The position numbers and the translations under genes were made by a program. From the sequence record PZ379074.1: DNA of 64,000 bases; one strand, written 5' to 3'. Positions 11,511-54,560 of this stretch are shown in pieces. Source of the DNA: a phage. A model generated the notes under the pieces. The model made no database searches. It saw only the letters and a program-made list of their open reading frames with translations, and was not told where the DNA came from. How positions within the stretch are numbered: the stretch's first letter is position 1; every line of letters starts with the position of its first letter.

Positions 11511-11800
11511 GACTAAGTCTAGCGCAAATTCAAACATTGTACCGGATGGAAGACGGAACGCCATACATGCTGCGCGGCGACCGCAAGAAGGCTTATGAAA
11601 AGCGGCCATCACTGTTTCACGACATCAATGCGCCATCAATCCCTGTCTTATTCCGGTTGGGCCTTGTTGATTGGGCGGTGCCAGGGGAGAAAGACCCGAC
11701 GCGCTATTCATCCGTGGTGATGACAAAAGCAGGTCGCGCGGCATTAAAAGAGATTAAAGAAAATATGGCTGGAGGTAAATATTATGACATCCAATCTTAA
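11507..11800 (+). CDS. Hypothetical protein
   Basis: 97-aa ORF, ATGA overlap. Confidence 0.5.
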   Translation: MRLSLAQIQTLYRMEDGTPYMLRGDRKKAYEKRPSLFHDINAPSIPVLFRLGLVDWAVPGEKDPTRYSSVVMTKAGRAALKEIKENMAGGKYYDIQS

Positions 11801-13830: not shown

Positions 13831-14363
13831 TGGGCGGCTTTTGGCGTAAAGCTAAATACTCTAAAGACTTGCATTACTTCTTGGATAATGAAGGCATAAG
13901 TATATGTGGCAGGTACAGAAGGGATAATGAATCAGCGTCGCAAAGTAATAAGGCTGAATGGTTACTCAAGGAAGAGTGCAAAGTTTGCCGCAAACGTTTT
14001 TGTGACAAAACCAGCATGACTGATTACATAAAGGAGCTTAGAAAAAGATGCAAAAGCCCGCAAGAGTTTGCCATAACTCTTTGGGATGATCACCCTGAGT
14101 TGAGAAGTGAATGGTTAAAGACTGATGCAATCAATTACATCTTCAAATCGAAATACAGGACGACAGCAAGATATAAAATGGATGAAGCAGTAATTCAAAA
14201 GGTATTTTCTTATTGGAGGGATACAGTCGATATTGTGAAAATAAAGAAATACCAAAACGAAGTGCTGCTGGAATTGGAGAGGATTGGCTATAAAGTCACC
14301 AATAAAATGATAAAAGAAGAAATAAAAAGGAGAACGGAAAAGGGGTTGATGCCTAAGATATAG
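13827..14363 (+). CDS. Hypothetical Cys-rich basic protein
   Basis: 178-aa ORF, RBS AAGGAGG; CGRY ... CKVCRKRFC. Confidence 0.55.
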   Translation: MMGGFWRKAKYSKDLHYFLDNEGISICGRYRRDNESASQSNKAEWLLKEECKVCRKRFCDKTSMTDYIKELRKRCKSPQEFAITLWDDHPELRSEWLKTDAINYIFKSKYRTTARYKMDEAVIQKVFSYWRDTVDIVKIKKYQNEVLLELERIGYKVTNKMIKEEIKRRTEKGLMPKI

Positions 14364-14599
14364 TGAATAAACGAACACCGTTTACGTGTTTTGAAGAATG
14401 GAATGTGTACAATGGGTCGCTTTATGCGGCCTTTTGTTGTTTGGGTCGTGTTTTGCGATGGAATAATTATGAGGTTGTGTTTTATTTATTAATTGTGCGG
14501 AAATATTTAGAAATATATTTCATAGGTCGTGTCTATTGGTCCGTGGTGTTTGTTAGGACTTATCTATGGATTGAAATTTTAGTGTCGTGAAACGTGGTG

Positions 14600-15060
14600 T
14601 TTGAACACATTTGATACGCGTAAAATACGGCTAAAAATTAAGCGTATCATGGCTGCAGGCCGCGCCGTTACTGAGTTCCTATTTTCAAAAGTGGTACACC
14701 CTTACGGATGATACGTCATGGTTTTTTATCCGTATCAGTGTACAGCCCTTGCCGCGCCTGGCCTGTACATTAATCTTACGGATGATACGGATAAAACTGG
14801 GCACCATTATATATATAATTTGAAAAATTAATTAACTCCATTTTAAAAACATTTAAATTATTTTTTTCATATCCTCATACTTATGTTAATTTATATATTT
14901 AACGTATCATCCGTAAGATATAAGTAAAAACAAAGACTTGCGGCAATACGGATGATACGTTATGATACGCTTCGACCAGCCAGCAGCGGCTAAGTCATTG
15001 ATTTGCATAACAAGCAGCGAAAGGGATGGATTTCTTTTATCCGTATCAAACAGTACACCA
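14600..15060. repeat. Iteron-like locus A: inverted and direct copies of CGGATGATACG around an AT-rich core
   Basis: CTTACGGATGATACG at 14701 and 14775; TTATCCGTATCA at 14727 and 15037; inverse copy at 14902; ACGGATGATACGTTATGATACG at 14948; AT-rich core 14808-14900; TACGCGTA at 14614. Confidence 0.6.
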
Positions 15061-15198
15061 CGCACCACGGTCCGTTATCCATTCAGCACTATGATTTGTG
15101 TACGTTTATAGCCATAATGAACATCAATCTGCACTTGAATATAATGTCCATCCATTGTATAATTCACACTATTAATTTGCACTATGGGATTTTGCACT

Positions 15199-15672
15199 AT
15201 GAGTCAAGATTATGTAGCGATGCCTGAAGACTTTGAAGACCCGCGATTTGCAGAGCACAATCAGGCTTTATTCGATGAGTTCATTGACCTTGTTATTCAG
15301 GGCCATGACATGCGCGCAGCTTTTGCACTAGTATTTGGAATGGAAGTTGCAACGGATAACTACACTGGCCAGCGAATCCTTTGCGCGCAACGCAATCCAT
15401 ACTACAAGATGCGCTTCAAAAAGCGTATGGAAGAGATGCCACTCAAGGATTTGTGGAGCGTAAAAGGTGCAATTCACAATTTGGTCAAGCTTGTGCGTGA
15501 TCCAGAAGTCGCGGCGTCAGCCAAACTTAATGCTATTCGTGAACTGAATATCATCTACGGCATCACGATGATTGATGAAAACGGCAATAGTAAAATGGGC
15601 CGTTCCATGGACGATTTCTACAAGGATTTTGGAGAGGCGGCCAAAGAAGGTGAGCAATTCTCCCGCCACTAG
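15199..15672 (+). CDS. Hypothetical protein (157 aa); ATG embedded in an 11-mer copy
   Basis: ORF MSQDYVAMPEDFEDPRF...; no obvious SD; start codon is the ATG of TTTGCACTATG. Confidence 0.45.
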   Translation: MSQDYVAMPEDFEDPRFAEHNQALFDEFIDLVIQGHDMRAAFALVFGMEVATDNYTGQRILCAQRNPYYKMRFKKRMEEMPLKDLWSVKGAIHNLVKLVRDPEVAASAKLNAIRELNIIYGITMIDENGNSKMGRSMDDFYKDFGEAAKEGEQFSRH

Positions 15673-15691
15673 CCAATTTGCACTATAAAAC

Positions 15692-15725
15692 GGCCCTAGA
15701 ACACATTTTCTCCACTTCTAGGGCC
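15692..15725. other. Perfect 10-bp inverted repeat (GGCCCTAGAA / TTCTAGGGCC) with 14-nt loop
   Basis: Read directly; immediately after the 15199..15672 stop and an 11-mer copy; no clear U-tract on plus strand. Confidence 0.4.
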
Positions 15726-16100
15726 ATCGGTAATACGACGGGGAAGGTTACAACCATAAACGCGTTATAAAGTGTATTATTATAAGTCATCTTTTAGTCA
15801 CTTTCCGTAACAATTTACGACCTTCAACCGTCCAATCGAACGACTCCACCAGCAGATTTGCACTATAACCTAAGACTACCCGACCTTTCTCGTTATCGAC
15901 CCGCCAGCAAGTCTCGAATAGCATCTTATTTGCACTATTAACTATCGCCGCAACTCGCGTAGGATAAGCGCAATTTGCACTATGGTCATAAAGGGATAAG
16001 GTGCGACCACTTCCGATGGACAACGTAGCGATGAGAATGAGCGTATTCATAAGCCACCAATTTGCACTATGAAAAGCGACCCCGAAGGGCCGCCATTCTA

Positions 16101-16727
16101 TTAGATAATCTGGAAGGTGTAGGACTTGTTGCCGAACTCAAAGTTCAAGCGCCCAGCTTCCTTAAGCTTCATGCGGAAGCGAATGTGTTTGCTATCCGGC
16201 AAGCCCAGCGCGGCGAACGCTACGCGGACCGATTTGAACTCGCCTACACCCTCGACCATGACACCGTTACGGGTGAGACGCTTTTGCGCCACTTCCTTAT
16301 TATCCCAGCTTTTTGCAATACCTTCGCTATTCGAACGGCGATGGGAAGGAGTTCCATTTTGCACTACGCAATTTGCACTATCGTTTAAACCGCTCTTAAC
16401 GAAGGCTTCATATTCTTCGTCGGTCATCGCGTCGAGTTCTTCCTGGGTCGGCTCAGCCTTTTTAACGACCGCACGCGCCTTATGCGTTTTTACATCGCTG
16501 GACACTTCCTCGCGCGGCTTCGCGTCGGGAATGGGCGATTCGTTGGACGGCTCATCGAGCGCGTTTAAGGACTCGATTAACGCGATTACGCGAGTCTCGG
16601 CGGTCCGGCGGTCCGCGAATTTCTTAATCGGCTTCGAACCGGAATTTGCATTATAAAATGCAACGAGGTCGGCGGTCTTAGTTGCGATAACGTCGCCGCT
16701 AGTAGAAAAGCGATTTAAGCTAACCAT
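16101..16727 (-). CDS. Hypothetical protein; 5-prime half CpG-rich, 3-prime half of ordinary composition
   Basis: 208-aa ORF with minus-strand RBS AGGAG in context CTAGGAGTTTATTATG; contains two 11-mer copies at the composition change. Confidence 0.55.
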   Translation of the reverse strand: MVSLNRFSTSGDVIATKTADLVAFYNANSGSKPIKKFADRRTAETRVIALIESLNALDEPSNESPIPDAKPREEVSSDVKTHKARAVVKKAEPTQEELDAMTDEEYEAFVKSGLNDSANCVVQNGTPSHRRSNSEGIAKSWDNKEVAQKRLTRNGVMVEGVGEFKSVRVAFAALGLPDSKHIRFRMKLKEAGRLNFEFGNKSYTFQII

Positions 16728-16807
16728 AATAAACTCCTATTTGTTAGGGCGCTAGGCGCGAAAGAATTTTATTAAAGCGCCGCGCACGACGCTCTAAAAA
16801 TCCTCTC

Positions 16808-17122
16808 TTACTCTTCGTCGTCTTCGATTAATTCGAGGGCGAAGGCGTAAGCTTTGCTATCGTAATTAACTAAAACGGCGAGTTCGAACTCGTTAATAAA
16901 CGCCGTTTTACCGCATAAATTTAATTCCGCATCGACTTCGAAGAATCCGTTTTCGTCGCGCTCTAAGCGAGAAGCAGCGAGTTGCTCGATTACCGTCGCG
17001 TCGTTAATTTCTTCGCCTAAGCGAACGCCGGAGAATTTAGCGAGAATTTCGCCGTAAGTAAGCGTAACGCCCTGGACTTCGGCGGTTGCGTTTTCGAGGG
17101 TAAAGCGGGTAACGATAGCCAT
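16808..17122 (-). CDS. Small acidic hypothetical protein (104 aa, C-terminus ELIEDDEE)
   Basis: RBS context CTAGGAGTTTATTATG; CpG-rich codon usage. Confidence 0.55.
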   Translation of the reverse strand: MAIVTRFTLENATAEVQGVTLTYGEILAKFSGVRLGEEINDATVIEQLAASRLERDENGFFEVDAELNLCGKTAFINEFELAVLVNYDSKAYAFALELIEDDEE

Positions 17123-17346
17123 AATAAACTCCTAGTTGGGAGAGGCGTTAACGACCTATTCGTTAACTCATCCCGTCCCGATATGAGTACATTATAATAT
17201 AGTGTAGAAAAAAGTAAAGCACTTTTTCGATAAAAATGCGATAAATTATTTTATCTTTTTTCTTTACTTCTTCGTACACTCGCGTATACTTGTTTATATC
17301 GAGACGGGCGATGTCCCTTTCTTCTACTAGCATCGGGAGCTTTATT
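17123..17346. promoter_or_regulatory. Divergent intergenic control region with repeated TTTATATCGAGA(C/G)GGG elements and TATAAT-like hexamer
   Basis: CTTTACTTCTTCGTACACT plus TTTATATCGAGA repeated at 17255-17300 and 17660-17700; inverted copies of AAAGTAAAGCACTTTTTCG at 17212 and 17648. Confidence 0.4.
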
Positions 17347-17649
17347 ATGACTACTTTAATCTCTTCCATCCTTACTTACGACGAAGACCGCTTAACCGTT
17401 CGCTCTCTTATCGCCGCCGTTAACGCGGAACTAGAATCTAGCGCCATTAAGGTCCGCGCGGTCGCCTTCATCGGCCTTTCCTTCGACGATATGAAGTATG
17501 CCGAACGTAGCGCTATCCGCTTCGCGAAGACCGACGACGAAGCCGTTACCCTTATCGAGACGGTTACGCCGCGCGACGAAGCGTTAATTATCGTCGAGTA
17601 TATCGACGTAGAAGGCGATAAGGCTTATAAATATTTTATCGCAGAATAA
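17347..17649 (+). CDS. Small acidic hypothetical protein (100 aa)
   Basis: ATG at 17347 after GGGAGCTTTATT; CpG-rich. Confidence 0.55.
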   Translation: MTTLISSILTYDEDRLTVRSLIAAVNAELESSAIKVRAVAFIGLSFDDMKYAERSAIRFAKTDDEAVTLIETVTPRDEALIIVEYIDVEGDKAYKYFIAE

Positions 17650-17756
17650 CGAAAAAGTGCTTTACTTCTTCGTACACTAAGACTATAATGTTTTATATCG
17701 AGAGGGGATGAGGTAGCGAATAGGTCGCTACCCTCCCGACCAACTAGGAGATTATT

Positions 17757-18047
17757 ATGATTACTTTAGCCGCTATCCGTAACGCTCGCGCCGAAACTTC
17801 CGAAAACTCTAACGTATTTGGCGAAAAACTTAAAAACGTTTATCTCTTTAACGTAGATGCGACTATCGAGGAGCTTCATAGTCCTATCGATTTTAGCGAA
17901 TTTACGGAACTCGAAGAGGAAGATATTTCTACTTTCCGCGTTACTATCGAAGGCAAGGTTTATTTTGCTACGGAGTTCGGCGGCGAATATCTCGCGGTAT
18001 CCGAAGGCGAAGGCCGTTACTCTTTCTTTAAAATCGTCTCCTTATAA
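17757..18047 (+). CDS. Small acidic hypothetical protein (96 aa)
   Basis: RBS context CTAGGAGATTATTATG preceded by hairpin GTAGCGAATAGGTCGCTAC. Confidence 0.55.
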   Translation: MITLAAIRNARAETSENSNVFGEKLKNVYLFNVDATIEELHSPIDFSEFTELEEEDISTFRVTIEGKVYFATEFGGEYLAVSEGEGRYSFFKIVSL

Positions 18048-18049
18048 TA

Positions 18050-18758
18050 CCCTTCCGTTACTAATAGGCCGCGCTTAGTCGCGGCTTTTCTTCGTCCCTA
18101 TCCCGATGCGCGTCTACGCGAAAACTCCTTTATCCTTCCCTTCGTCGTCGCATAATCTTCTTCGAGATGCTCCTTAGTTCGCATAACAGGTATTACGTTA
18201 AATGGAGAACATCGCGTAAGTCCTTGTTTTATATAGACACCTATATCGGACCGTTAGGGCGGGTCGCGTAAGTCGTTGTTTTATAAAGGCGCAAAACTTT
18301 CCCTTCGTTCCGAACTAAAACGAGGAATATGCCGACCCTTCGTCCGAAAATAGTATGCATGCGAAATTACATGCATCTAGAATAATCCCCACCGATATTA
18401 TCCTACACGCAATCATTCGCTTTCGAATCATTATGCTTCATATTATTATGCATCGAATCATTCTCTTTCGAATTGTAACGCTGGAAACTGTAACGGCGAT
18501 TGATTATTGCGTTCGTGTGGTTTTTAGGGCATGGGTCTTTTGGTGCGTTTTGCTACTTGATGAAATTTGCGGTACACTAATCAAAATACGACACATTTGG
18601 TCCACTAACTTTTCAAAGAAAAAGTCCTAGACAGTACCGTACTATTTTGCACCCACAGGAAATTTGCAGTACACTCCTGCGCGGCAGGCAAAATAAAGGG
18701 CCGCACTAAGCGACCCACTAAGCGACCCACGATTCACGGTTAAAGCAACATCCACCCA
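18050..18758. repeat. About 700 bp without a convincing ORF, rich in short direct repeats
   Basis: CGCGTAAGTCNTTGTTTTATA x2 (18216, 18267); CGAATCATT x3 (18420-18470); TGTAACG x2; ATTTGC(A/G)GTACACT x2 (18563, 18662); ACTAAGCGACCC x2 (18705-18730). Confidence 0.4.
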
Positions 18759-19139
18759 CTATTCACTCTTATGGGCATCACCAAAGCCATCCGCAATCTG
18801 GCTGATCAATGATTCAATGGACACAGTTTTACCAATTGATCGAGCGGTAATAGCAAGCATATTATCAATCAAACCACGATTGACTGCATATGTTCCAGGT
18901 TTTGACTCATCTTCAGAACAACCAAAAAGCTGGTCGCGCAGACTTTCAAGAGAACGCTCAATATTTTCCAACTTCTCTTCTAAATCGGATTGGCGACGTA
19001 AAACCCATGTCAAGTCACGGTTGCCAACTTCCAATCCATCAGAATAGCAAGGTGGAGCGTCAATTTTGATGCTGGAACCAAAAGCAATGCCGCTGCCTTT
19101 AGTATGTGTGTGGCTCATAGAATCATTTTTATTTGACAT
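18759..19139 (-). CDS. Hypothetical protein
   Basis: Start taken at internal ATG 19139 (MSNKND...) with AAAGGTAA upstream; track ORF extends to 19205. Confidence 0.5.
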   Translation of the reverse strand: MSNKNDSMSHTHTKGSGIAFGSSIKIDAPPCYSDGLEVGNRDLTWVLRRQSDLEEKLENIERSLESLRDQLFGCSEDESKPGTYAVNRGLIDNMLAITARSIGKTVSIESLISQIADGFGDAHKSE

Positions 19140-19236
19140 ATCATTACCTTTAATATTTGGGTGATTAATAATAACTATAATAAAGCCGCATGGCGCGCCA
19201 TTCAAATCGGTTTATTAATTGTAACGATTGGATTCA

Positions 19237-19431
19237 TCAATCGATACCAACTGAGCCGATGTGCTGAAAGAATTCTGAATAAACTTCCTTCCAGTACTTG
19301 CGCGCAGCTTTCTGGGCTTGCCCTTTGCGCTTGTAGCTTTTACCTTGGAAAATGAAACGGTCGTTTGCTGCGTTATACTCCACCACACCTTCCAGCCATT
19401 GTAAGAATGCTACTGATTCATTTTTATTCAT
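19237..19431 (-). CDS. Hypothetical basic protein
   Basis: 64-aa ORF, RBS GAGGT. Confidence 0.5.
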   Translation of the reverse strand: MNKNESVAFLQWLEGVVEYNAANDRFIFQGKSYKRKGQAQKAARKYWKEVYSEFFQHIGSVGID

Positions 19432-19438
19432 GTTAACC

Positions 19439-19834
19439 TCAATATTTTAATAAGAAAGTACCCAACCAACTTTCCTCAATCTCGCGGCCAGTAGCCACAC
19501 GGTCGGTCTTGGCTATGGGTCTGGATTCGCCGCAGGGCAATCCGTCTTGTAGTTGTGTACTATTGCCAATTCTCACCAGAACCTTTCCATCAGGGTCGAT
19601 ATAAGCGCGACAACCCATGATTTCGAGTCGTTGTAGACACTGGCGAATCGTTTTCAGCTTCTCACCGGACCGGATAGAGCGCGGTCGCGACCGCTGACCG
19701 TTTTTATTCACTGTACGCTTGAAAACCGGAATATCATTGGTGCGTTGCGGCTTGGGTCGGTAATAAGCCTCTTCGCCAGGAGTTGCACCTGGTGTCAGTT
19801 CGCGCTTAAGCGCCTTTTCAATATCAATGATCAT
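19439..19834 (-). CDS. Hypothetical basic protein
   Basis: Start uncertain (19834 or 19906); Arg/Lys-rich. Confidence 0.4.
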   Translation of the reverse strand: MIIDIEKALKRELTPGATPGEEAYYRPKPQRTNDIPVFKRTVNKNGQRSRPRSIRSGEKLKTIRQCLQRLEIMGCRAYIDPDGKVLVRIGNSTQLQDGLPCGESRPIAKTDRVATGREIEESWLGTFLLKY

Positions 19835-19927
19835 AATTATGCTGCAGCAGCGTGAATGATTGCATAAACAATTCCTAACATGGCGACAACACAAACCGTG
19901 CCCCAAAATGCAAAACGTCGTGATTCT

Positions 19928-20215
19928 TTATCCATTGGACCCTTCTCCACTGTTGATATTATCCGAAATCAAAGTCGGAATTTCATCTTGAGTCCTTACC
20001 TTGTAGTGCGAAGGCATCTTACTTTCCAACAATGCCTGTTCAGCTTCGCCTTTTGTTTCAAACAAAGGAATGCACCAATCAACTGCATTTCCTTGCTCGT
20101 CGCCATTAACAGCTTTCAAGAATACAAGACGCTTGTCTGCAGGGTCGATGCCGCAAATTAAGTATTTAGGCAGCGCCTTTGCTTTTTGGGCCTTATCAAT
20201 ATCTTCAAATTTCAT
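19928..20215 (-). CDS. Hypothetical protein
   Basis: 95-aa ORF, RBS GTGAGGTG. Confidence 0.45.
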   Translation of the reverse strand: MKFEDIDKAQKAKALPKYLICGIDPADKRLVFLKAVNGDEQGNAVDWCIPLFETKGEAEQALLESKMPSHYKVRTQDEIPTLISDNINSGEGSNG

Positions 20216-20296
20216 AAATCACCTCACTTGTTAACGTATAATGAGTATAACTTAATATCGCATAAAGTAAAGGCGCTTTTCAGCGCCTTGAGTGAA

Positions 20297-22660
20297 TTAT
20301 TTCGCTGCTTTTAGCGCGGCTATTTCTGCCTCTAGTGACTCGACCTTTTTCATCAACTCCTGCACCACGTGCATCGTATCCAAAAGCATAGGTGTGGTGT
20401 CAAGTTGCTTTTGCTCAACTTCGACACCTTCACTTGGATAGAATTTAATCGTTTTGACATACAACGGGTCAATAGTCTCTGCCTGTTGAGCAATAATCCC
20501 TCTTCTCACCCTTTCCTTTTCATCATTGTTGTAGATGAAAGTTACATACTCCAGCAATGAAAGGTTGCTCCATGCTTTTTCTACCGTTCCTGGTTGTATG
20601 TCATGCTTCAAATTCTCATCAGAGATGGCATTCTTCTGAAGAGTGAAGAAACTGTCAGAGCCTGGAACGGATACTGAAAAGAATACGTCCTCTACGTTAG
20701 GCTGGATTTGCATCTTTGTTTGATACTTTGCATCATCATCACCAGAAGCAATCCACGTAGCTTGCGCAAAACTTCCATTGTTGTTGTGAATCATGCCATG
20801 GTGAACAGTAGTTGCGTATCCTGTATTAACAGATTGACTACCACTGATAAGGCTGTTGAAGCCATAGTTCTGACCAAGACCCTGACGAACCATCGAGAAG
20901 GTGCCTGACTTTGATCCTGTTTCAGCCCACGACATTAACGTTCCGTACCGTGCCGCAAATCGGTCAGACCATAATAGACCGTCATCAGTCAAGCTGATGT
21001 CTTTTTCTTTACCTGCAGTGACGTTTTTTACTGATAACTGGGTGGAATATGACCCACCCATCGTTGCTGATGTGTAAACCGTTCCTTGCGCTTCGATGGC
21101 AGTTCCAATCTTGTATTCAACGCTTACTTTCCCTGATTCAACTCTCGTTCCGTCTATCGGTCTGGTGGCGTCACCGTTGATAACACTCCAAGACGTTTTC
21201 GCGGCAACAAATCCGCCCGATGCACGAATCACCCAAACGCCGATGAAGTTGCGCGGCAAAATGTTATCCGAAACGCCATATCTGCCATAAGTGCCATTCG
21301 AATAACTTGCCCTAAAGTTCAAGGTGTTTAAACGGCCTGGTGTTGCACCAGTACCGCCTGGTATCGTTTCACCAGCCCCTTGAGGGTATAAGTCATTGTT
21401 TGTGTAAAATGCGCCTCTTACGGCTGTACCGAAAATTTGCGCGTAAGTCCCTTGAGACACGCCTGCCGCAGAACCTGCAATGTCTGGCGCAGCCGCTTCA
21501 TAAATTGTCCCGTCATTGGAAGATGTTCCGCCATCACCTCGCCCAAAAAGCTCCTTGATTGATCCTGTCTGAACACCGTTTCTGTCCGGCACACGGAATG
21601 TAGTTGTGCCATTACCCAAAGAATATTTACCACGCTTTTGGGCGTCAGCAAGCCAGTCAGCATCCGCAATAGGTGATAACATTTGCGCGTATGCCCAAAG
21701 TTCAGGCCAGTCAGCGCGATTCAGCAATTGTCCGTCTGCAACGACTTCATACGGTTGAATATATGCACGACTGTCTCGCAAGTGGAAGTCGCCGACGCCA
21801 TAGTTCATAACACCGTTCATGCTTGGGCCAACGGTGCCTGTGTTCACTAAGTTCTCAACCCAACGCTTGGTTGCAGCATCATAATCGTTTACCGGATCAC
21901 CAGCAAGCGGAGTCGACCCTTGTGGACGAATATTCAACCAAGCTTGAGCATTGTCTGCTGATCCTGTGCCGCCCATGGAAGTTGGGACGATGCTTTGATC
22001 AGCAACAGGGCCAAATCCAAATGCATCTTTCATTCCTTGAATGGTTGTCTGCCCCGTTCCGCCATTTACAATTGGAATCGTGCTTTGCGTACTATACATC
22101 TGCACCCAATCCGACCAGGATGATGAGCCAGCATTGTATAGCCTTTGGTATATGGCGTTGATCCAATAAGGCGTATATCTTTGGACGCAACTTTCTCCTG
22201 CGACGCCAGTCTTGTAGACTTCAAGAATGCCAGCTTGTGAAACTGGATAGTTCAAAGCCGATGATGCGCCAGCATTTGCTGATTGATGATATTGGCCAAA
22301 CCATGAACCAGTCAAAGCATTGAGATTTATTCCGTTAGGAATCTCCCCAAAGTTTCGGACGGTGCCCGTCAAAGTCGCGGCAGTAGTTCGAATGGAAAGC
22401 ATATCGCCAGCCGCCCATGCACGCGCTGCAGTTCCTTCTTGTGCACGCTGCACGGTCAGAACGTTTCCAACCACGGCTGTTACTGTGACGATTTCGAATT
22501 GGAGGCCTGTTGCAGCGTCGACGATTGTCGCCACTACACGCTCGTTTGCGCCCAAGGTCGGAAAGCCCGACCCTGAGCGAATTGTGATGGTGGTGTCTGA
22601 AGTCGTGGTTGGCTGAGCCAGTGCGACCTCAAAGTTGTTTTTGAATATTAGCCTTGGCAT
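20297..22660 (-). CDS. Tail fiber/tailspike protein with C-terminal intramolecular-chaperone-like (peptidase S74-type) domain
   Basis: 787-aa ORF; Gly/Thr/Ser-rich body; C-terminus ...HDIQPG...YVTFIYNNDE...RRGIIAQQ... ending in coiled-coil VESLEAEIAALKAAK. Confidence 0.8.
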   Translation of the reverse strand: MPRLIFKNNFEVALAQPTTTSDTTITIRSGSGFPTLGANERVVATIVDAATGLQFEIVTVTAVVGNVLTVQRAQEGTAARAWAAGDMLSIRTTAATLTGTVRNFGEIPNGINLNALTGSWFGQYHQSANAGASSALNYPVSQAGILEVYKTGVAGESCVQRYTPYWINAIYQRLYNAGSSSWSDWVQMYSTQSTIPIVNGGTGQTTIQGMKDAFGFGPVADQSIVPTSMGGTGSADNAQAWLNIRPQGSTPLAGDPVNDYDAATKRWVENLVNTGTVGPSMNGVMNYGVGDFHLRDSRAYIQPYEVVADGQLLNRADWPELWAYAQMLSPIADADWLADAQKRGKYSLGNGTTTFRVPDRNGVQTGSIKELFGRGDGGTSSNDGTIYEAAAPDIAGSAAGVSQGTYAQIFGTAVRGAFYTNNDLYPQGAGETIPGGTGATPGRLNTLNFRASYSNGTYGRYGVSDNILPRNFIGVWVIRASGGFVAAKTSWSVINGDATRPIDGTRVESGKVSVEYKIGTAIEAQGTVYTSATMGGSYSTQLSVKNVTAGKEKDISLTDDGLLWSDRFAARYGTLMSWAETGSKSGTFSMVRQGLGQNYGFNSLISGSQSVNTGYATTVHHGMIHNNNGSFAQATWIASGDDDAKYQTKMQIQPNVEDVFFSVSVPGSDSFFTLQKNAISDENLKHDIQPGTVEKAWSNLSLLEYVTFIYNNDEKERVRRGIIAQQAETIDPLYVKTIKFYPSEGVEVEQKQLDTTPMLLDTMHVVQELMKKVESLEAEIAALKAAK

Positions 22661-29589: not shown

Positions 29590-30510
29590 ATGACGATACC
29601 AATCAGCACGTTTCCTCTATCTGGACAAACGCCAGTATTGCCTGCTGTATATGCTAACGGTTTGGCGATTGTTTCGGAATTCACATCCGATAAAAACCTG
29701 ATTGTTCCATTGAGTCCGCCATTGGCGTCTGGATACAATTCAGTTGGCCAGTTCTTTATGATCGGTAATGATGGCGATTCTACCAGCAAGCCGAATCTGA
29801 CACTTTCAGTTCCCAAAATGAACATAACAGACGTGCAGACTGGTTTAACTGCATCTACGATCACCATCGCTTTTGGAGAAGCAGTGATTATAGGCATGGA
29901 GTCTGGAGGGTCCAAGAATGCTGTCGCCGTTAAGGTAGTCAAATCCAGCAGCAACCAATACACACTACCAGCGGCAACGGCTTCTGTTCTTGGCGGCGTC
30001 AAAATAGGAAGTGGCATAAGCGTTGCAGGTGACGGTACAATTAGTGTGACTCAATACTCATTACCGATTGCATCAGCATCAACCTTGGGTGGCATAAAGG
30101 TAGGAACGACACTATCAATTGATGGTTCTGGCGTCCTTAATGCTGCTGCAAGCACTGTGCAGAACGCAAGCAACAGCGTAAGCAATCCTCCGACAACTCT
30201 GGTGAATCTGGCAGCCTTAAACCTGCCTGCAGGGAAATGGCTTGTGACAGCAAGTCAGTTGACTGTCGCGACAGCAGGAGTTCAAGCGAATACCGGAATT
30301 ACAGTCAAACTGTCAACAAGTAATTCAGATATTACGGATGATGCATTTACAATGTCAGCTGGCATTCGGGCTGCAGGTCGTTTCGGCGGCAATATCCCAA
30401 CAAAGATAATTACTCTTGCCGCGCCTGGCAACGTGTATCTAAACTATCAATGCACAGACGCATTGACATCTACCGTTTACGGACAGATCACCGCAATTAA
30501 GTTGAACTAA
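29590..30510 (+). CDS. Structural protein with fiber-like Gly-rich repeats
   Basis: ATG at 29590 after GAGGT; repeats VLGGVKIGSGISVAGDGTISV and TLGGIKVGTTLSIDGSGVL. Confidence 0.6.
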   Translation: MTIPISTFPLSGQTPVLPAVYANGLAIVSEFTSDKNLIVPLSPPLASGYNSVGQFFMIGNDGDSTSKPNLTLSVPKMNITDVQTGLTASTITIAFGEAVIIGMESGGSKNAVAVKVVKSSSNQYTLPAATASVLGGVKIGSGISVAGDGTISVTQYSLPIASASTLGGIKVGTTLSIDGSGVLNAAASTVQNASNSVSNPPTTLVNLAALNLPAGKWLVTASQLTVATAGVQANTGITVKLSTSNSDITDDAFTMSAGIRAAGRFGGNIPTKIITLAAPGNVYLNYQCTDALTSTVYGQITAIKLN

Positions 30511-30520
30511 AGAGGAAGTT

Positions 30521-30658
30521 ATGCAAAAGATTATTCAGTCACGTTACGTTAAAGTGCGAAATATTAATTGCAACTCTTTGCTTTCTTGGAAATGGGCTGT
30601 TTACGACTCGATGCTGATTGGCGTTTTAGTTGCTGGAGTGCTTTTTAATATTCACTGA
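30521..30658 (+). CDS. Small hydrophobic peptide (45 aa)
   Basis: RBS AGAGGAAG; C-terminal MLIGVLVAGVLF; below ORF-track cutoff. Confidence 0.35.
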   Translation: MQKIIQSRYVKVRNINCNSLLSWKWAVYDSMLIGVLVAGVLFNIH

Positions 30659-30689
30659 ATCGCCTGGCAATGGATTGCCGCAGGATTTT

Positions 30690-30975
30690 ACGCGTATAAT
30701 GACGTATCATCCGTATCAAGTAAGTAGTTGTTTTCAAAAGAATCTTACGGATGATACGGATGATACGCGTTGCCGCGATACTTTATAAGAGTTTATAAAA
30801 AAATAAAATTATATATCTAATTTAATTTTATTTTTTTATAAACTCTTATATATGAAAAGTATCCGTATCATCCGTATCATCCGTAGCACACCAGTGATAG
30901 CGCGGCTTATACACCGATACGGATAAAAATACACCTCATTTTATCCGTATCATCCGTATCACACTAATTAAGGCG
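30690..30975. repeat. Iteron-like locus B: tandem and inverted CGGATGATACG copies flanking a 60-bp AT-rich palindrome
   Basis: CTTACGGATGATACGGATGATACG at 30744; ATCCGTATCATCCGTATCATCCG at 30861; TTATCCGTATCATCCGTATCA at 30951; AT palindrome 30783-30850; TACGCGTA at 30689. Confidence 0.6.
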
Positions 30976-52882: not shown

Positions 52883-53421
52883 CGCACTTCCTGTGTCTTA
52901 ACATTACCTGAAGCATCTCTCAAGGGCAGTGGATAGTAGGCCATTTGGTAGTCTGATACGCCTTCAATGTGATAAAACACGATTACGTCTTTGCTGTTGA
53001 TGAGCATGTTAACGACATCTGATTTATCTTCTGGAGTGAGTATTAGTGCGCCGCCTGTCCTGCTGTCTACTGCAACAGGGTATGTCTTGTCGACAAGGCC
53101 GCTGTCCAATGTATTATACCTGACAACGATTTCAGGGGCATCAACTTTTACCATTGACATTCCGAACACAAACGACACGACTTGGCGACCGCGATCATTC
53201 ATTACGCACATCTTTTCCTTGTCAAACCTTTCCTTTATCACATCATATTTATTCCAGCAAAATTCGAACGATTGTCCGTTGTTAAAATATCTCGTTAACA
53301 CTTTGGCATTACTATTTGGCGGCGTAAACATACTTTCAGCCGCTGCACTTTTGGTGAAGAACAAGACTGTCAGCATAGCCATGATGGTGATCAAAACAAT
53401 CTTTAAAGTCTTCGATTTCAT
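52879..53421 (-). CDS. Secreted protein with N-terminal signal peptide
   Basis: RBS AAAGGTGA; MKSKTLKIVLITIMAMLTVLFFTKSAAAES. Confidence 0.5.
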   Translation of the reverse strand: MKSKTLKIVLITIMAMLTVLFFTKSAAAESMFTPPNSNAKVLTRYFNNGQSFEFCWNKYDVIKERFDKEKMCVMNDRGRQVVSFVFGMSMVKVDAPEIVVRYNTLDSGLVDKTYPVAVDSRTGGALILTPEDKSDVVNMLINSKDVIVFYHIEGVSDYQMAYYPLPLRDASGNVKTQEVR

Positions 53422-53496
53422 TATAATTCACCTTTTGATTACGAATATTAATAGTATAGGCCGAAGGTTTTGAAAGTAAATAAGGCGAAAGGTAAA

Positions 53497-53524
53497 TAAA
53501 AGAAAAGCCGGAGATTTCCGGCTT
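53497..53524 (-). terminator. Rho-independent terminator for the minus-strand ligase operon
   Basis: Hairpin AGCCGGA / TCCGGCT followed on the minus strand by TTTCTTTTATTT. Confidence 0.5.
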
Positions 53525-53597
53525 TATGTATACACTGTATATTAAATTCTATAAAACGACGCGATAGATTATCCGCACCAATTATTTATCTAGTGTC

Positions 53598-54560
53598 TTA
53601 AAAATACTCCATATCGGTAATATCACGGAAGCATTTATACAAAGCAGAGCGCGGCACATCAACAATGCCAAAGTTAAAGAATTTATACGTTAGATATTTA
53701 TCGCGATAGTTCTCGCGATTCTCCCAAAGCATTTTTCTCTCTGCCATAGGCATTGAACCAGCGGATACGCGGAAAGGAATCATTTCACCTTGCTCATCCA
53801 CATATTTTGGATTGACGACTACGAATGAGCCAAGGTATCCTTTCGCAACTAAACCTTCAGCCTCTTTTGAACGCTTGGTGCGACCCAATTCGTCAATGAA
53901 TGCTTCGTTGTTGTTCTCCATCATCTCAACGAAGTCTATGATCAGTCCTTCTTCATCGGTCCACGGCTTGTCCTTCCACACATCACGTGACTTTGGCGTC
54001 GCGCGGCCATGCTTGTATTTGCCCGTCCAAGACTTGCCATACAAGCCTTCATAGCCAAGCTGGTCTGCTTCGATTTGCATCGCCGCGTACTGTTCCATAT
54101 TTTCGATGTTTCGATATTCGAGAGCGCGAAGGAATGGGCGTCGACCATGGTTGATGAGGTGCTGATTGACTTCAGCAACTCTAGCGCGATATTTTGCATA
54201 ACGCTTTTCAAAAGGCAAATCAGGGTTGCTGAAGTCATCAAACACCCACCATGTAAAGTTAGTGATTGCATCAGTGTTCATGCATGCAGTATAGGCCTGT
54301 TGCATGACGTTCTTGTCGTTCGGATTACCGTCAATTAGCTCTCCATCAAGTCCGTGAATTAGTTCACCCAAAAAGAGGAACTCTTTTTTGATTTGAACGT
54401 TGCGCAACGGCATGCCGGAAGTGCCCATTGGCAAGTTGTCATACGCCATTGCGCGTATGCCATCGACCTTGAATGACAGTCCGCAAGGCAGCGGAACGTC
54501 CTCGCCGCGCTCGATAATCTGCTTACGTTGGCAACCCTTCATTGGTTTTAATGCTGTCAT
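53598..54560 (-). CDS. ATP-dependent DNA ligase
   Basis: 320-aa ORF; adenylation motif KVDGIR (KxDG), LDGELI and EGLVAK nucleotidyltransferase motifs. Confidence 0.8.
   Translation of the reverse strand: MTALKPMKGCQRKQIIERGEDVPLPCGLSFKVDGIRAMAYDNLPMGTSGMPLRNVQIKKEFLFLGELIHGLDGELIDGNPNDKNVMQQAYTACMNTDAITNFTWWVFDDFSNPDLPFEKRYAKYRARVAEVNQHLINHGRRPFLRALEYRNIENMEQYAAMQIEADQLGYEGLYGKSWTGKYKHGRATPKSRDVWKDKPWTDEEGLIIDFVEMMENNNEAFIDELGRTKRSKEAEGLVAKGYLGSFVVVNPKYVDEQGEMIPFRVSAGSMPMAERKMLWENRENYRDKYLTYKFFNFGIVDVPRSALYKCFRDITDMEYF

Follow-up and report, generated by a model that had tools for sequence, protein, structure and literature searches.

What keeps some 2 kb of a phage genome, coding and non-coding DNA alike, poor in the dinucleotides CA and TG? 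The question is raised by positions 16390–18350 of the stretch analysed here (the window: the whole 64,000 nucleotides of record PZ379074.1), which is Wifcevirus DNA (E. coli myophage). Wifcevirus is a genus of therapeutic interest with a very fast reported life cycle, development being complete in ~10 min by one-step growth. An initial annotation had singled out the segment as a CpG-rich island, and its CpG observed/expected ratio is indeed about twice that of the rest of the window [2.11 versus 1.09; in sliding 500-nt windows, 1.8–2.3 in the block against a mean of 1.12]. CA/TG depletion is nevertheless the primary signal and CpG richness a secondary one: CA and TG are ~4-fold depleted (rho 0.28 versus 1.18), and the CpG and TpA excess is mostly an arithmetic by-product of this depletion. 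GC content is not lowered, CA/TG being replaced by both CG and TA. The composition of the block is unique within the window; a low CA/TG count at 53401–53650 proved to be merely that of an AT-rich intergenic region.

The depletion is equal on both strands and in coding and non-coding DNA, and covers promoters, spacers and DNA beyond the terminator. All genes, on either strand, have sense sequences in which CA is as depleted as TG, and every NCAN context is depleted (0.10–0.51 of background density). A milder depletion (rho ~0.75) extends leftward from the core to ~15640. The genes of the block contain no TTG, CTG, TCA, CCA or ACA codon, and their proteins are nearly devoid of five amino acids, His, Gln, Cys, Trp and internal Met. 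Codon resampling of the same proteins with background codon usage gives an expectation of 30–45 CA/TG per gene and a minimum, over 500 samples, of 20–28; the actual counts are 6–8 per gene in the block and 1 in each of two genes of L015, a genome with an equivalent block. Codon preference and even amino-acid usage give way to the CA/TG depletion. The codon choice resembles that of highly expressed genes, with no AGA, AGG, ATA, CGA or GGG.

The block lies in the right half of a 3.8-kb direct terminal repeat (DTR), ~270 bp short of its right boundary (Table 1). The DTR was placed by alignment with the terminal copies of phage WFC, which are identical over 3784 bp and show 97% identity to the window; the DTR of Mansfield, a PhageTerm prediction, measures 3673 bp. 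On this sequence evidence the physical left end of the phage genome would lie at about 14840. The left 1.5 kb of the DTR is of normal composition, as is the terminase-small-subunit-like gene (CA/TG rho 1.27), and a search of 14500–19500 found no Rfam family. Two ATTTGCACTAT copies, at first taken to mark a junction inside g208, turned out to belong to an array, found only in the DTR, of at least 11 copies that all lie on the same strand. Copies of (A/T)TTTGCACTA with 0–1 mismatch all lie inside the DTR, bar one 1-mismatch copy on the - strand at 11520, and variants occur at 16644, 18565 and 18662. The motif is also found in L015, Kyle and PA1, with 7 copies directly upstream of the PA1 island. 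The array is probably bound by a protein and may possibly have a role in packaging.

Table 1. Features of the direct terminal repeat and of the CA/TG-depleted block (window coordinates).
Feature	Coordinates	Strand	Basis or detail
DTR	14840..18621	.	WFC terminal copies and Mansfield PhageTerm DTR
Array of 11 (A/T)TTTGCACTA motifs	15175..16380	all +	Motif search
Terminase-small-subunit-like gene, 162 aa	15184..15672	+	Mansfield homologue annotated TerS by HHpred; phrog_4783 match
Intrinsic terminator, end of leftward early operon	16075..16096	-	GC-rich hairpin then T-run; WFC terminator annotated at equivalent position
g208, conserved early gene	16101..16727	-	phrog_4730
CA/TG-depleted, CpG-/TpA-rich core	16390..18350	.	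Dinucleotide rho
g104, small acidic protein, net -15, C-terminus ELIEDDEE	16808..17122	-	ORF list; CA/TG rho 0.2
g104 5'-UTR hairpin (predicted), stem GTTAACGA/TCGTTAAC, loop AUAGG	17147..17167	-	Loop same as g96 and Serratia copies; compensatory stem changes
Leftward operon promoter (predicted), TTTACT-16-TATAAT	17191..17218	-	Box conserved across genera
g100 promoter (predicted), TTTACT-16-TATACT	17263..17290	+	Identical 19-nt box in L015
g100, small acidic protein, net -8	17347..17649	+	29/29 block-bearing records, 85–97% aa identity
g96 promoter (predicted), TTTACT-17-TATAAT	17661..17689	+	Inverted repeats I1 and I2 shared with g104 cassette
g96 5'-UTR hairpin (predicted), stem GGTAGCGA/TCGCTACC, loop AUAGG	17712..17732	+	-16 kcal/mol
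g96, small acidic protein, net -10	17757..18047	+	Hypervariable between isolates
Intrinsic terminator, end of rightward early genes	18066..18087	+	WFC and Mansfield terminators annotated at same position
Non-coding tail, still CA/TG-poor (~40/kb)	18088..18350	.	Two 25-nt direct repeats, 18212–18236 and 18264–18288

Three conserved sigma-70-type promoters of the near-consensus form GCTTTACT-N16/17-TATAAT are predicted in the block; they match 9–10 of 12 consensus positions, are conserved in sequence across genera and, as predicted, drive two divergent units. The repeats CTTTACTTCTTCGTACACT and TTTATATCGAGA(C/G)GGG (repeat families D13 and D11), described earlier as intergenic elements, are present and are in fact the -35 region and 5' leader of these promoters. 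The exact promoter box occurs in IMG/VR only in Wifcevirus contigs. A start context CTAGGAG with a GAATAGGTCG hairpin had been ascribed to three genes; g104 and g96 have it, and g208 has ATAGGAG and another upstream sequence. The stem of the g96 hairpin covaries with the g104 and Spe5P4 copies. The position of the block, inside the DTR and behind strong host-type promoters, supports its being a place where early host-takeover or anti-defence genes are expected. The view of the block as a cassette for small acidic proteins, with its own regulation and a composition seen nowhere else in the window, stands.

The four ORFs lie exactly where the initial annotation put them, and the three products of ~100 amino acids are acidic as it stated. 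The composition of the first gene, g208, does shift half-way, from a CA/TG-poor 5' half to a near-normal 3' half, in a gradient. The gene is not the chimera that had been suggested: conservation spans the entire gene in Pbunavirus, Kylevirus, Myosmarvirus and metagenomic relatives, with 36–54% identity to PB1 ORF77, Kyle gp4, L015 and Spe5P4. In its AlphaFold model (pLDDT 82) a disordered linker joins a helical domain at the N-terminus to a winged-helix-like one at the C-terminus. No PDB fold match has an E-value below 0.2, and those listed include Zalpha, ArsR/CadC and CodY-C, which are winged-helix proteins; BFVD contains three matches with E ≤ 0.001, the best two of them uncharacterised homologues, together with weak DNA-binding and NUMOD-like matches. 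The model lends weak support to a DNA-binding-like fold. The Zalpha match, a weak fold match, was not taken as a sign of Z-DNA binding.

The acidic orphans (96–104 aa) fall into two families, g96/g104 and g100, with two to four members per module. g96 is a paralogue of g104 and of a 94-aa Mansfield protein, and a homologue of the 103-aa L015 protein P0137; it varies from 57 to 98% amino-acid identity across 29 records, the flanking DNA being >90% identical throughout. g104 is present in only 11 phage records, its slot being occupied in others by a 94-aa g96 paralogue or empty, and g100 has a 35% identical homologue in L015. Against Pfam the island proteins gave nothing below E = 0.1 and the small acidic proteins, at E up to 1, one chance-level DUF match only; PHROG matches of the island proteins are to unnamed families. 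The small proteins have no Pfam, PHROG or PDB sequence match, with no PDB chain below E = 0.04. Their only model, that of g96 (AlphaFold, pLDDT 55), is not interpretable. A g96/g104 profile search of 1.84 billion representative proteins added P0137 as the single genuine new homologue; two repetitive proteins were dismissed as spurious matches. Beyond this phage clade the small genes have no homologues, and a scan of early genes, ten further early ORFs included, detected no nuclease or methylase domain. An anti-defence function is plausible for the small acidic proteins, which are candidates in this respect.

The segment had also been proposed to be a horizontally acquired accessory island. This is not supported: syntenic presence in relatives had been named beforehand as an outcome that would refute it, and the block is in syntenic position in 29 of 33 related phage records, only the g104 slot varying. 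The same families and composition recur in three other lineages. In 10 aligned relatives CA+TG per kb is 33–50 at up to 14% divergence, and alternative alleles and an extra ORF are as depleted as the block itself. Equivalent CA/TG-poor blocks are found in Pantoea (Kylevirus) phages, Serratia (Myosmarvirus) phages and metagenomic relatives; the genomes concerned are L015 (rho 0.02–0.07), Kyle, PA1, Spe5P4, L033 and the metagenomic lineages L045, L046, L050 and L052. PB1 and more distant g208 carriers have no such block, nor do T7, N4 and SP6, whose leading ends show no similar signal. Paralogues at 25–35% identity are all still CA/TG-depleted. The depletion is thus shown to outlast gene replacement, paralogue divergence to 25% identity and genus-level divergence. 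Within the 10 aligned relatives CA/TG-creating variants include more singletons, and CA/TG-creating changes are mildly under-represented (35% of observed versus 41% of possible transitions), so that selection on each site is weak in Wifcevirus, unless most of these variants are short-lived. Because this polymorphism signal is weak, the case for selection rests mainly on persistence over deep divergence.

Wifcevirus resists EcoKI, EcoCFT_I, EcoRI, EcoRV and EcoCFT_II and is very sensitive to EcoP1_I (PMC11990801). The EcoP1_I site, AGACC, contains no CA/TG, and the island carries copies of it in either orientation (2+/1- in Bas98); for none of the resisted systems are the sites in the DTR arranged so that they could be cleaved. 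The island contains no CAGCAG, CATG, PstI, PvuII, EcoBI or Chi site and has CACAG once, CACAG being taken as the EcoCFT_II site from its count of 93. In the E. coli EC958 methylome two of four RM motifs contain CA/TG (PMC4659465); in this one small sample CA/TG is not enriched, the fraction being that predicted by chance.

Our leading explanation, tentative and in our judgement slightly more apt to be wrong than right, is that the block serves as an immediate-early leader module from which DNA-level selection, still at work, keeps CA and TG out, the probable benefit being escape from an enzyme that recognises a very short target. This selection would be purifying, and the exclusion would not derive from a donor. 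The module would be the first DNA to act in the cell and, should packaging finish and ejection begin at the right end, probably also the first to enter; it would have to work before any phage protection exists. Free of CA/TG, it would be unseen by a DNA-acting enzyme whose very short target always contains CA/TG and which could be either host-encoded or the activity by which the phage itself destroys host DNA. The broad restriction resistance measured for the genus would then come from the acidic proteins. Neither for E. coli nor for this phage do we know of an enzyme with CA/TG-level specificity. Elsewhere in the genome CA/TG density is normal, so the model depends on the module being set apart in time or space, for instance by a hypothetical stepwise entry of the DNA.

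Generic restriction-site avoidance is an unlikely alternative, but one to be taken seriously. Purging CA/TG would delete many type I and type III sites at once, so that the module survives until anti-restriction proteins are made. The strand-symmetric, DNA-level nature of the depletion agrees with this, as do the sites missing from the island, the single CACAG and the CA/TG-free site, in both orientations, of the sole RM system that restricts these phages. By our own estimate, however, CA/TG occurs in only ~25% of palindromic hexamers and ~40–50% of 5–7-bp asymmetric sites, and as CA/TG-free sites become commoner the net gain from CA/TG removal is small. We know of no RM enzyme with a CA/TG dinucleotide as its site. 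The EC958 motifs contain CA/TG only as often as by chance, specific sites can be avoided without a near-total loss as in L015, and the leading ends of T7, SP6 and N4 carry no similar signal. Selection acting on RNA or translation is much less probable; it would be directed against internal starts (AUG, GUG and UUG contain UG), RNA polymerase pause sites (Y-G) or the targets of mRNA-cleaving toxins. Every bacterial start codon includes TG, and the very strong promoters and the codon choice of highly expressed genes would suit such selection. It predicts an asymmetric signal limited to transcribed DNA, whereas sense-strand CA and TG are equally depleted in all genes on either strand and the depletion reaches promoters, spacers and post-terminator DNA.

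A context-specific mutational process on the DTR, with a deamination or repair bias at CA/TG, deserves just as little credence. Its analogue would be repeat-induced point mutation in fungi: every virion genome carries the region twice, and low CA/TG with high TA resembles the index of that process as given in the abstract of PMC2621366. Against it, GC content is not lowered, two transitions in opposite directions would be required to turn CA/TG into both CG and TA, and the left 1.5 kb of the same DTR is compositionally normal. CA/TG-creating variants are near their neutral proportion and therefore arise freely and are later removed. To our knowledge no bacterial mutational process of this kind has been described. 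The broad RM resistance, which lacks a known mechanism, would fit a base modified genome-wide in CA/TG context, the early module staying unmodified for the host machinery; we hold this to be very improbable. EcoRI and EcoRV sites contain no CA/TG, so that resistance to both would be left unexplained. PB1, moreover, has the same enzymes but no island, and no gene for base modification was recognised: thymidylate synthase is of the ordinary ThyX type, the 'kinase' matches the PNKP phosphatase domain only, and an SDR reductase likewise gave no sign of base modification. Least probable of all is a composition brought in from a foreign donor. The uniqueness of the composition within the window, small genes with no homologues beyond this phage clade and the variable g104 slot would accord with acquisition, but synteny in 29 of 33 records and the recurrence of the same families and composition in at least four diverged lineages do not, and g208 is a vertically inherited core gene depleted, as a gradient, only in its 5' half. 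Neutral drift would have erased the depletion that the 25–35%-identity paralogues keep. A repeat search found none bracketing the island, and no integrase or tRNA gene was noticed in the DTR ORF lists and record annotations.

Within the framework of a leader module kept CA/TG-free by selection, the exclusion might serve as a mark of self-immunity, a reading that we consider doubtful though worth stating. An early DNA-cleaving or -trapping activity at TG/CA steps would hit all DNA in the first minute and would spare the CA/TG-free module, at that point the only phage DNA to be in the cell or exposed. The activity could be the phage's own means of destroying the host chromosome, or it could belong to a host enzyme that the acidic early proteins have subverted, such as a poisoned type II topoisomerase. 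If true, this would be a new self/non-self DNA discrimination for a virus without modified bases and could bear on the survival of first-entering phage DNA amid host DNA degradation, as in T5, for which we know of no explanation.

A constraint that removes five amino acids from conserved proteins, held in at least four phage lineages (Escherichia, Pantoea, Serratia and unassigned metagenomic relatives), implies that in enterobacteria the earliest phage DNA is exposed to a powerful selective agent. Finding this agent could expose a new defence or take-over mechanism and could account for both the broad restriction resistance of Wifcevirus and its EcoP1_I sensitivity. Local dinucleotide exclusion offers a simple signature for leader or pre-early modules in other phages, and g96, g100, g104 and g208 are priority candidates for anti-defence screening.

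The block differs from known site avoidance and from the T5 pre-early region, and we found no published description of this composition in the literature. Like the block, the first-step-transfer (pre-early) region of T5 lies in a long direct terminal repeat, has host-promoter-driven genes, which in T5 act before the rest of the genome, and departs from that genome in oligonucleotide composition [CG rho 1.34 versus 0.76; AGAG 0.18-fold; GCGC 7.5-fold]. Its annotated roles are host DNA degradation (A1), host shut-off and DNA transfer, and it also provides protection from restriction. The T5 signature is milder and affects other words, CA/TG being normal, unlike in the block; the region spans 8–10 kb against 2 kb. 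The block proteins have no homology to A1, A2 or dmp in Pfam and PHROG searches, and two-step DNA transfer is not known for Wifcevirus. The T7 early region with Ocr (gene 0.3) resembles the block in having a small, strongly acidic protein and strong E. coli promoters near the genome end, which in T7 are the first to be used, and Wifcevirus resists type I restriction, a whole-phage phenotype. Unlike Ocr and ArdA, the block proteins match no Pfam family or PDB chain, and Ocr does not cover type II or the type III system that Wifceviruses also resist (PMC8594841). The left ends of T7 and SP6, in contrast to the block, have no dinucleotide anomaly.

Fungal repeat-induced point mutation likewise affects duplicated DNA and leaves low CpA/TpG and high TpA, as set out in the abstract of PMC2621366. 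It is a eukaryote-specific mutational process that lowers GC and inactivates genes, whereas the block keeps its GC content, its CpG rises and its genes are intact and conserved. With restriction-site avoidance (for phages, reviewed by Rusinov et al. 2018, as cited in PMC8594841) the block has in common that a DNA word is under-represented equally on both strands, in the block probably through selection. Known avoidance concerns 4–8-bp sites and is usually genome-wide, whereas here it is a dinucleotide pair that is excluded, from a 2-kb cassette only and with the loss of five amino acids.

The CpG richness that the initial annotation reported for positions 16390-18350 is confirmed, with an observed/expected ratio (rho) of 2.11 compared with 1.09 elsewhere, and can be sharpened, as the main anomaly is a near-exclusion of CA and TG. 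Rho is 0.29 for CA and 0.28 for TG, compared with 1.18 in the remaining window; the 1961-nt segment (hereafter the island) has only 69 CA + TG, compared with ~146 per kb elsewhere, and TpA rises from 0.67 to 1.22. A Markov chain derived from the remaining genome, in which C before A and T before G are forbidden, already gives a CG value of 1.67 and a TA value of 1.01, so most of the CpG richness is a by-product of CA/TG exclusion. Every NCAN context is depleted, CAG/CTG to 0.10 and TCA/TGA to 0.14 of the background density; CAT/ATG is the least depleted context (0.51), presumably owing to the need for start codons. The CA/TG exclusion, of which a literature search found no published account, is the segment's most interesting feature.

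The depletion is strand-symmetric and acts at the level of DNA. CA and TG are equally rare on the sense strand of both minus-strand genes (g208 and g104) and both plus-strand genes (g100 and g96). Promoters, spacers and the DNA downstream of the terminator are depleted ~3-fold and coding DNA ~6-fold. This pattern counts against translation, transcriptional pausing and mRNA cleavage as causes. The codons TTG, TCA, CCA, ACA and CTG (the leucine codon favoured by E. coli) are absent from the island genes, GTG occurs once, and CpG is very frequent at codon junctions. Synonymous resampling with the phage's own codon usage gives 30-45 CA/TG per gene (minimum 20 in 500 trials), compared with the 6-8 observed. 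The exclusion extends to amino acid composition, each small protein having 2-4 His, Gln, Cys, Trp and Met residues in total where ~10 are expected.

The window belongs to Wifcevirus, a genus of ~68 kb myophages that infect E. coli and Shigella and are kin of Pseudomonas phage PB1; positions 14000-22000 match 33 phage records at 90-96% identity. In vitro assembly has been achieved for one member of the genus, vB_Eco4M-7 (PMC11074155). The proposal that the island is a horizontally acquired accessory element does not hold, since 29 of these 33 records carry it, 24 of them with at least 80% coverage. Nor is the first gene, g208, chimeric: it is 93-100% identical among the Wifcevirus records listed and conserved end to end, with relatives in Pbunavirus, Kylevirus, Myosmarvirus and metagenomic phages matching over the full length at 36-54% identity, and the two motif copies taken to mark a junction are members of the (A/T)TTTGCACTA array described below. 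What stands of the original interpretation is an early, possibly anti-defence cassette. Both g100 (85-97% identity) and g96 occur in all 29 carriers; g96 is only 57-98% identical although the adjoining DNA exceeds 90%, and is hypervariable in its central and C-terminal segments (residues ~39-62 and ~82-90), a pattern typical of an arms-race interface. The g104 gene is present in 11 records, the slot being empty or occupied by a 94-aa g96 paralogue in the others. All alternative alleles, and an extra 50-aa ORF in RCIP0363, are as poor in CA/TG as the island of the window. Across 10 aligned relatives (divergence up to 14%) the CA + TG density is 33-50 per kb; variants creating CA/TG make up 35% of the transitions seen, compared with 41% of those possible, and lean to singletons, so per-site selection within Wifcevirus is modest.

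Equivalent islands occur beyond the genus, in the Pantoea phages Kyle and PA1 (rho 0.2-0.5), Serratia phage Spe5P4 (0.16-0.29), one ENA contig (L033, 0.41-0.64) and four metagenomic lineages with a g208 relative at 45-48% identity. A profile search identified a single distant g96 homologue (P0137), on contig L015, which also has g208 and g100 homologues and an identical 19-nt promoter box. The L015 island is more extreme, with rho of 0.02-0.07 across ~1 kb. Two of its genes have no TG apart from the start codon, and their proteins lack His, Gln, Cys, Trp and internal Met. No island is present in PB1 (61.5 of 65.8 kb scanned), in ~60 more distant, higher-GC loci with a g208 relative, or at the leading ends of T7, N4 and SP6. 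Paralogues and orthologues at 25-35% identity are long saturated at silent sites; that every one has kept the exclusion implies continuing selection, not ancestry.

Phage WFC has two identical terminal copies of 3784 bp that align to 14840-18621 at 97% identity, and PhageTerm predicts a direct terminal repeat of 3673 bp in Mansfield. This places the island in the right half of the repeat, its right edge ~270 bp short of the boundary. Three sigma-70-type promoters have TTTACT as -35 and TATAAT or TATACT as -10 element, with (A/G)TGC and an A-rich stretch upstream; TTGACA, the -35 consensus, would bring in both TG and CA. Promoter and leader are duplicated in inverted orientation between the g104 and g96 cassettes (inverted repeats I1 and I2), and the leftward and rightward units each end in a terminator. 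Both leaders form a predicted hairpin whose top, CGA-AUAGG-UCG, is invariant and whose stem carries compensatory changes. A Serratia phage gene is preceded by this hairpin too, there with a third stem; all three stems are fully compensated. No Rfam family matches the hairpin, a structured element conserved between E. coli and Serratia phages. The (A/T)TTTGCACTA array is restricted to the terminal repeat and adjoins a TerS-like gene, the sole outside copy (11520) having one mismatch and the opposite orientation. The motif is conserved in L015 and the Pantoea phages, PA1 having 7 copies, and may represent binding sites for packaging or other proteins.

Positions of features in the window and of the Serratia hairpin copy
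Feature	Position	Strand	Remarks
g208	16101-16727	-	
g104	16808-17122	-	
g100	17347-17649	+	
g96	17757-18047	+	
Leader hairpin	17712-17732	+	
Leader hairpin	17147-17167	-	
Leader hairpin, Serratia copy	~574-594 of locus L030		
(A/T)TTTGCACTA array	15175-16380, plus 16644, 18565, 18662	+	11 exact or 1-mismatch copies
AAATTTGC(G/A)GTACACT box	18562-18577		in repeat
AAATTTGC(G/A)GTACACT box	18659-18674		just beyond repeat
ATGCATGCGAAATTACATGCAT palindrome and ~45-nt repeats	18355-18482 region		
TACGGATGA clusters	14703-14955, 30333-30958		AT-rich

Other sequence features were observed in and around the repeat. GATC occurs once in its 3.8 kb and not at all in the island, compared with 1.48 per kb in the window; it is ~2.6-fold under-represented genome-wide as well. 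Directly right of the island lies the 22-nt palindrome ATGCATGCGAAATTACATGCAT; next come two copies of a ~45-nt repeat with 15-nt periodicity and then two AAATTTGC(G/A)GTACACT boxes, one on either side of the repeat boundary at 18621. TACGGATGA has 11 exact copies (0.24 expected) in two clusters that may be operator or origin-like sites; one spans position 14840, the physical left end of the genome, and the other has tandem and inverted copies. At 1-420 of the window, AG/CT rho is 1.82 and GC rho 2.31, because a minus-strand ORF there is built of GCNGCNAAG-type codons; it apparently encodes an Ala/Lys/Glu-rich, coiled-coil-like protein.

For the small proteins, Pfam yielded no significant match, PHROG none, and PDB sequence comparison nothing below E = 0.04. 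The predicted model of g96 is unusable (pLDDT 55). That of g208 (pLDDT 82) comprises a helical domain at the N-terminus and a helix/hairpin domain at the C-terminus, with a disordered linker between them; its fold matches are all to winged-helix or other DNA-binding modules and are weak, so g208 is only tentatively read as DNA-binding.

Our leading explanation, held at slightly less than an even chance, is that selection at the DNA level acts on an immediate-early leader module, allowing it to evade an enzyme whose target is very short and contains CA/TG. The leader DNA alone would be exposed first and would be spared because its CA/TG sites are nearly gone; island-encoded protection would act afterwards. 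As CA/TG density is normal in the remaining genome, any such model needs temporal separation. No candidate nuclease or methylase was found among the early genes scanned, and no base-modification pathway was recognised. Plain avoidance of restriction-modification sites, a weaker form of the same idea, seems unlikely: according to our calculation, CA/TG is part of only a quarter to a half of typical recognition sequences, and the motifs in a small E. coli methylome sample are not enriched for CA/TG.

Restriction phenotypes bear on the leader-escape model. The wifceviruses tested resist EcoKI, EcoCFT_I, EcoRI, EcoRV and EcoCFT_II and are very sensitive to EcoP1_I (PMC11990801), the sole system effective on them. 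The Bas98 genome has 18 EcoRI, 3 EcoRV, 93 EcoCFT_II and 82 AGACC sites, and five 5-mers, CACAG among them, occur in it exactly 93 times, the EcoCFT_II number in the BASEL supplement. AGACC, the EcoP1_I site, contains neither CA nor TG and is present in both orientations in the Bas98 island (2+/1-) and repeat (3+/2-); among the short-site systems tested, only EcoP1_I has a site that can be present in CA/TG-free DNA. Of the five 5-mers, CACAG is probably the EcoCFT_II site. The repeat has one CACAG and no EcoRI, EcoRV or EcoCFT_I sites. This site pattern fits a model in which leader DNA alone is exposed until island-encoded protection acts, and is suggestive, not decisive.

The two-step DNA entry of phage T5 is a model for the temporal separation needed. 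The first-step-transfer repeat of T5 is compositionally distinct too, but its signature is different and milder: compared with the remaining T5 sequence (L013/L032, 1-64000), CG rho is 1.34 versus 0.76 and GC rho 1.58 versus 1.10, with AGAG at 0.18-fold and GCGC at 7.5-fold. Repeats that enter first may in general bear oligonucleotide constraints of their own.
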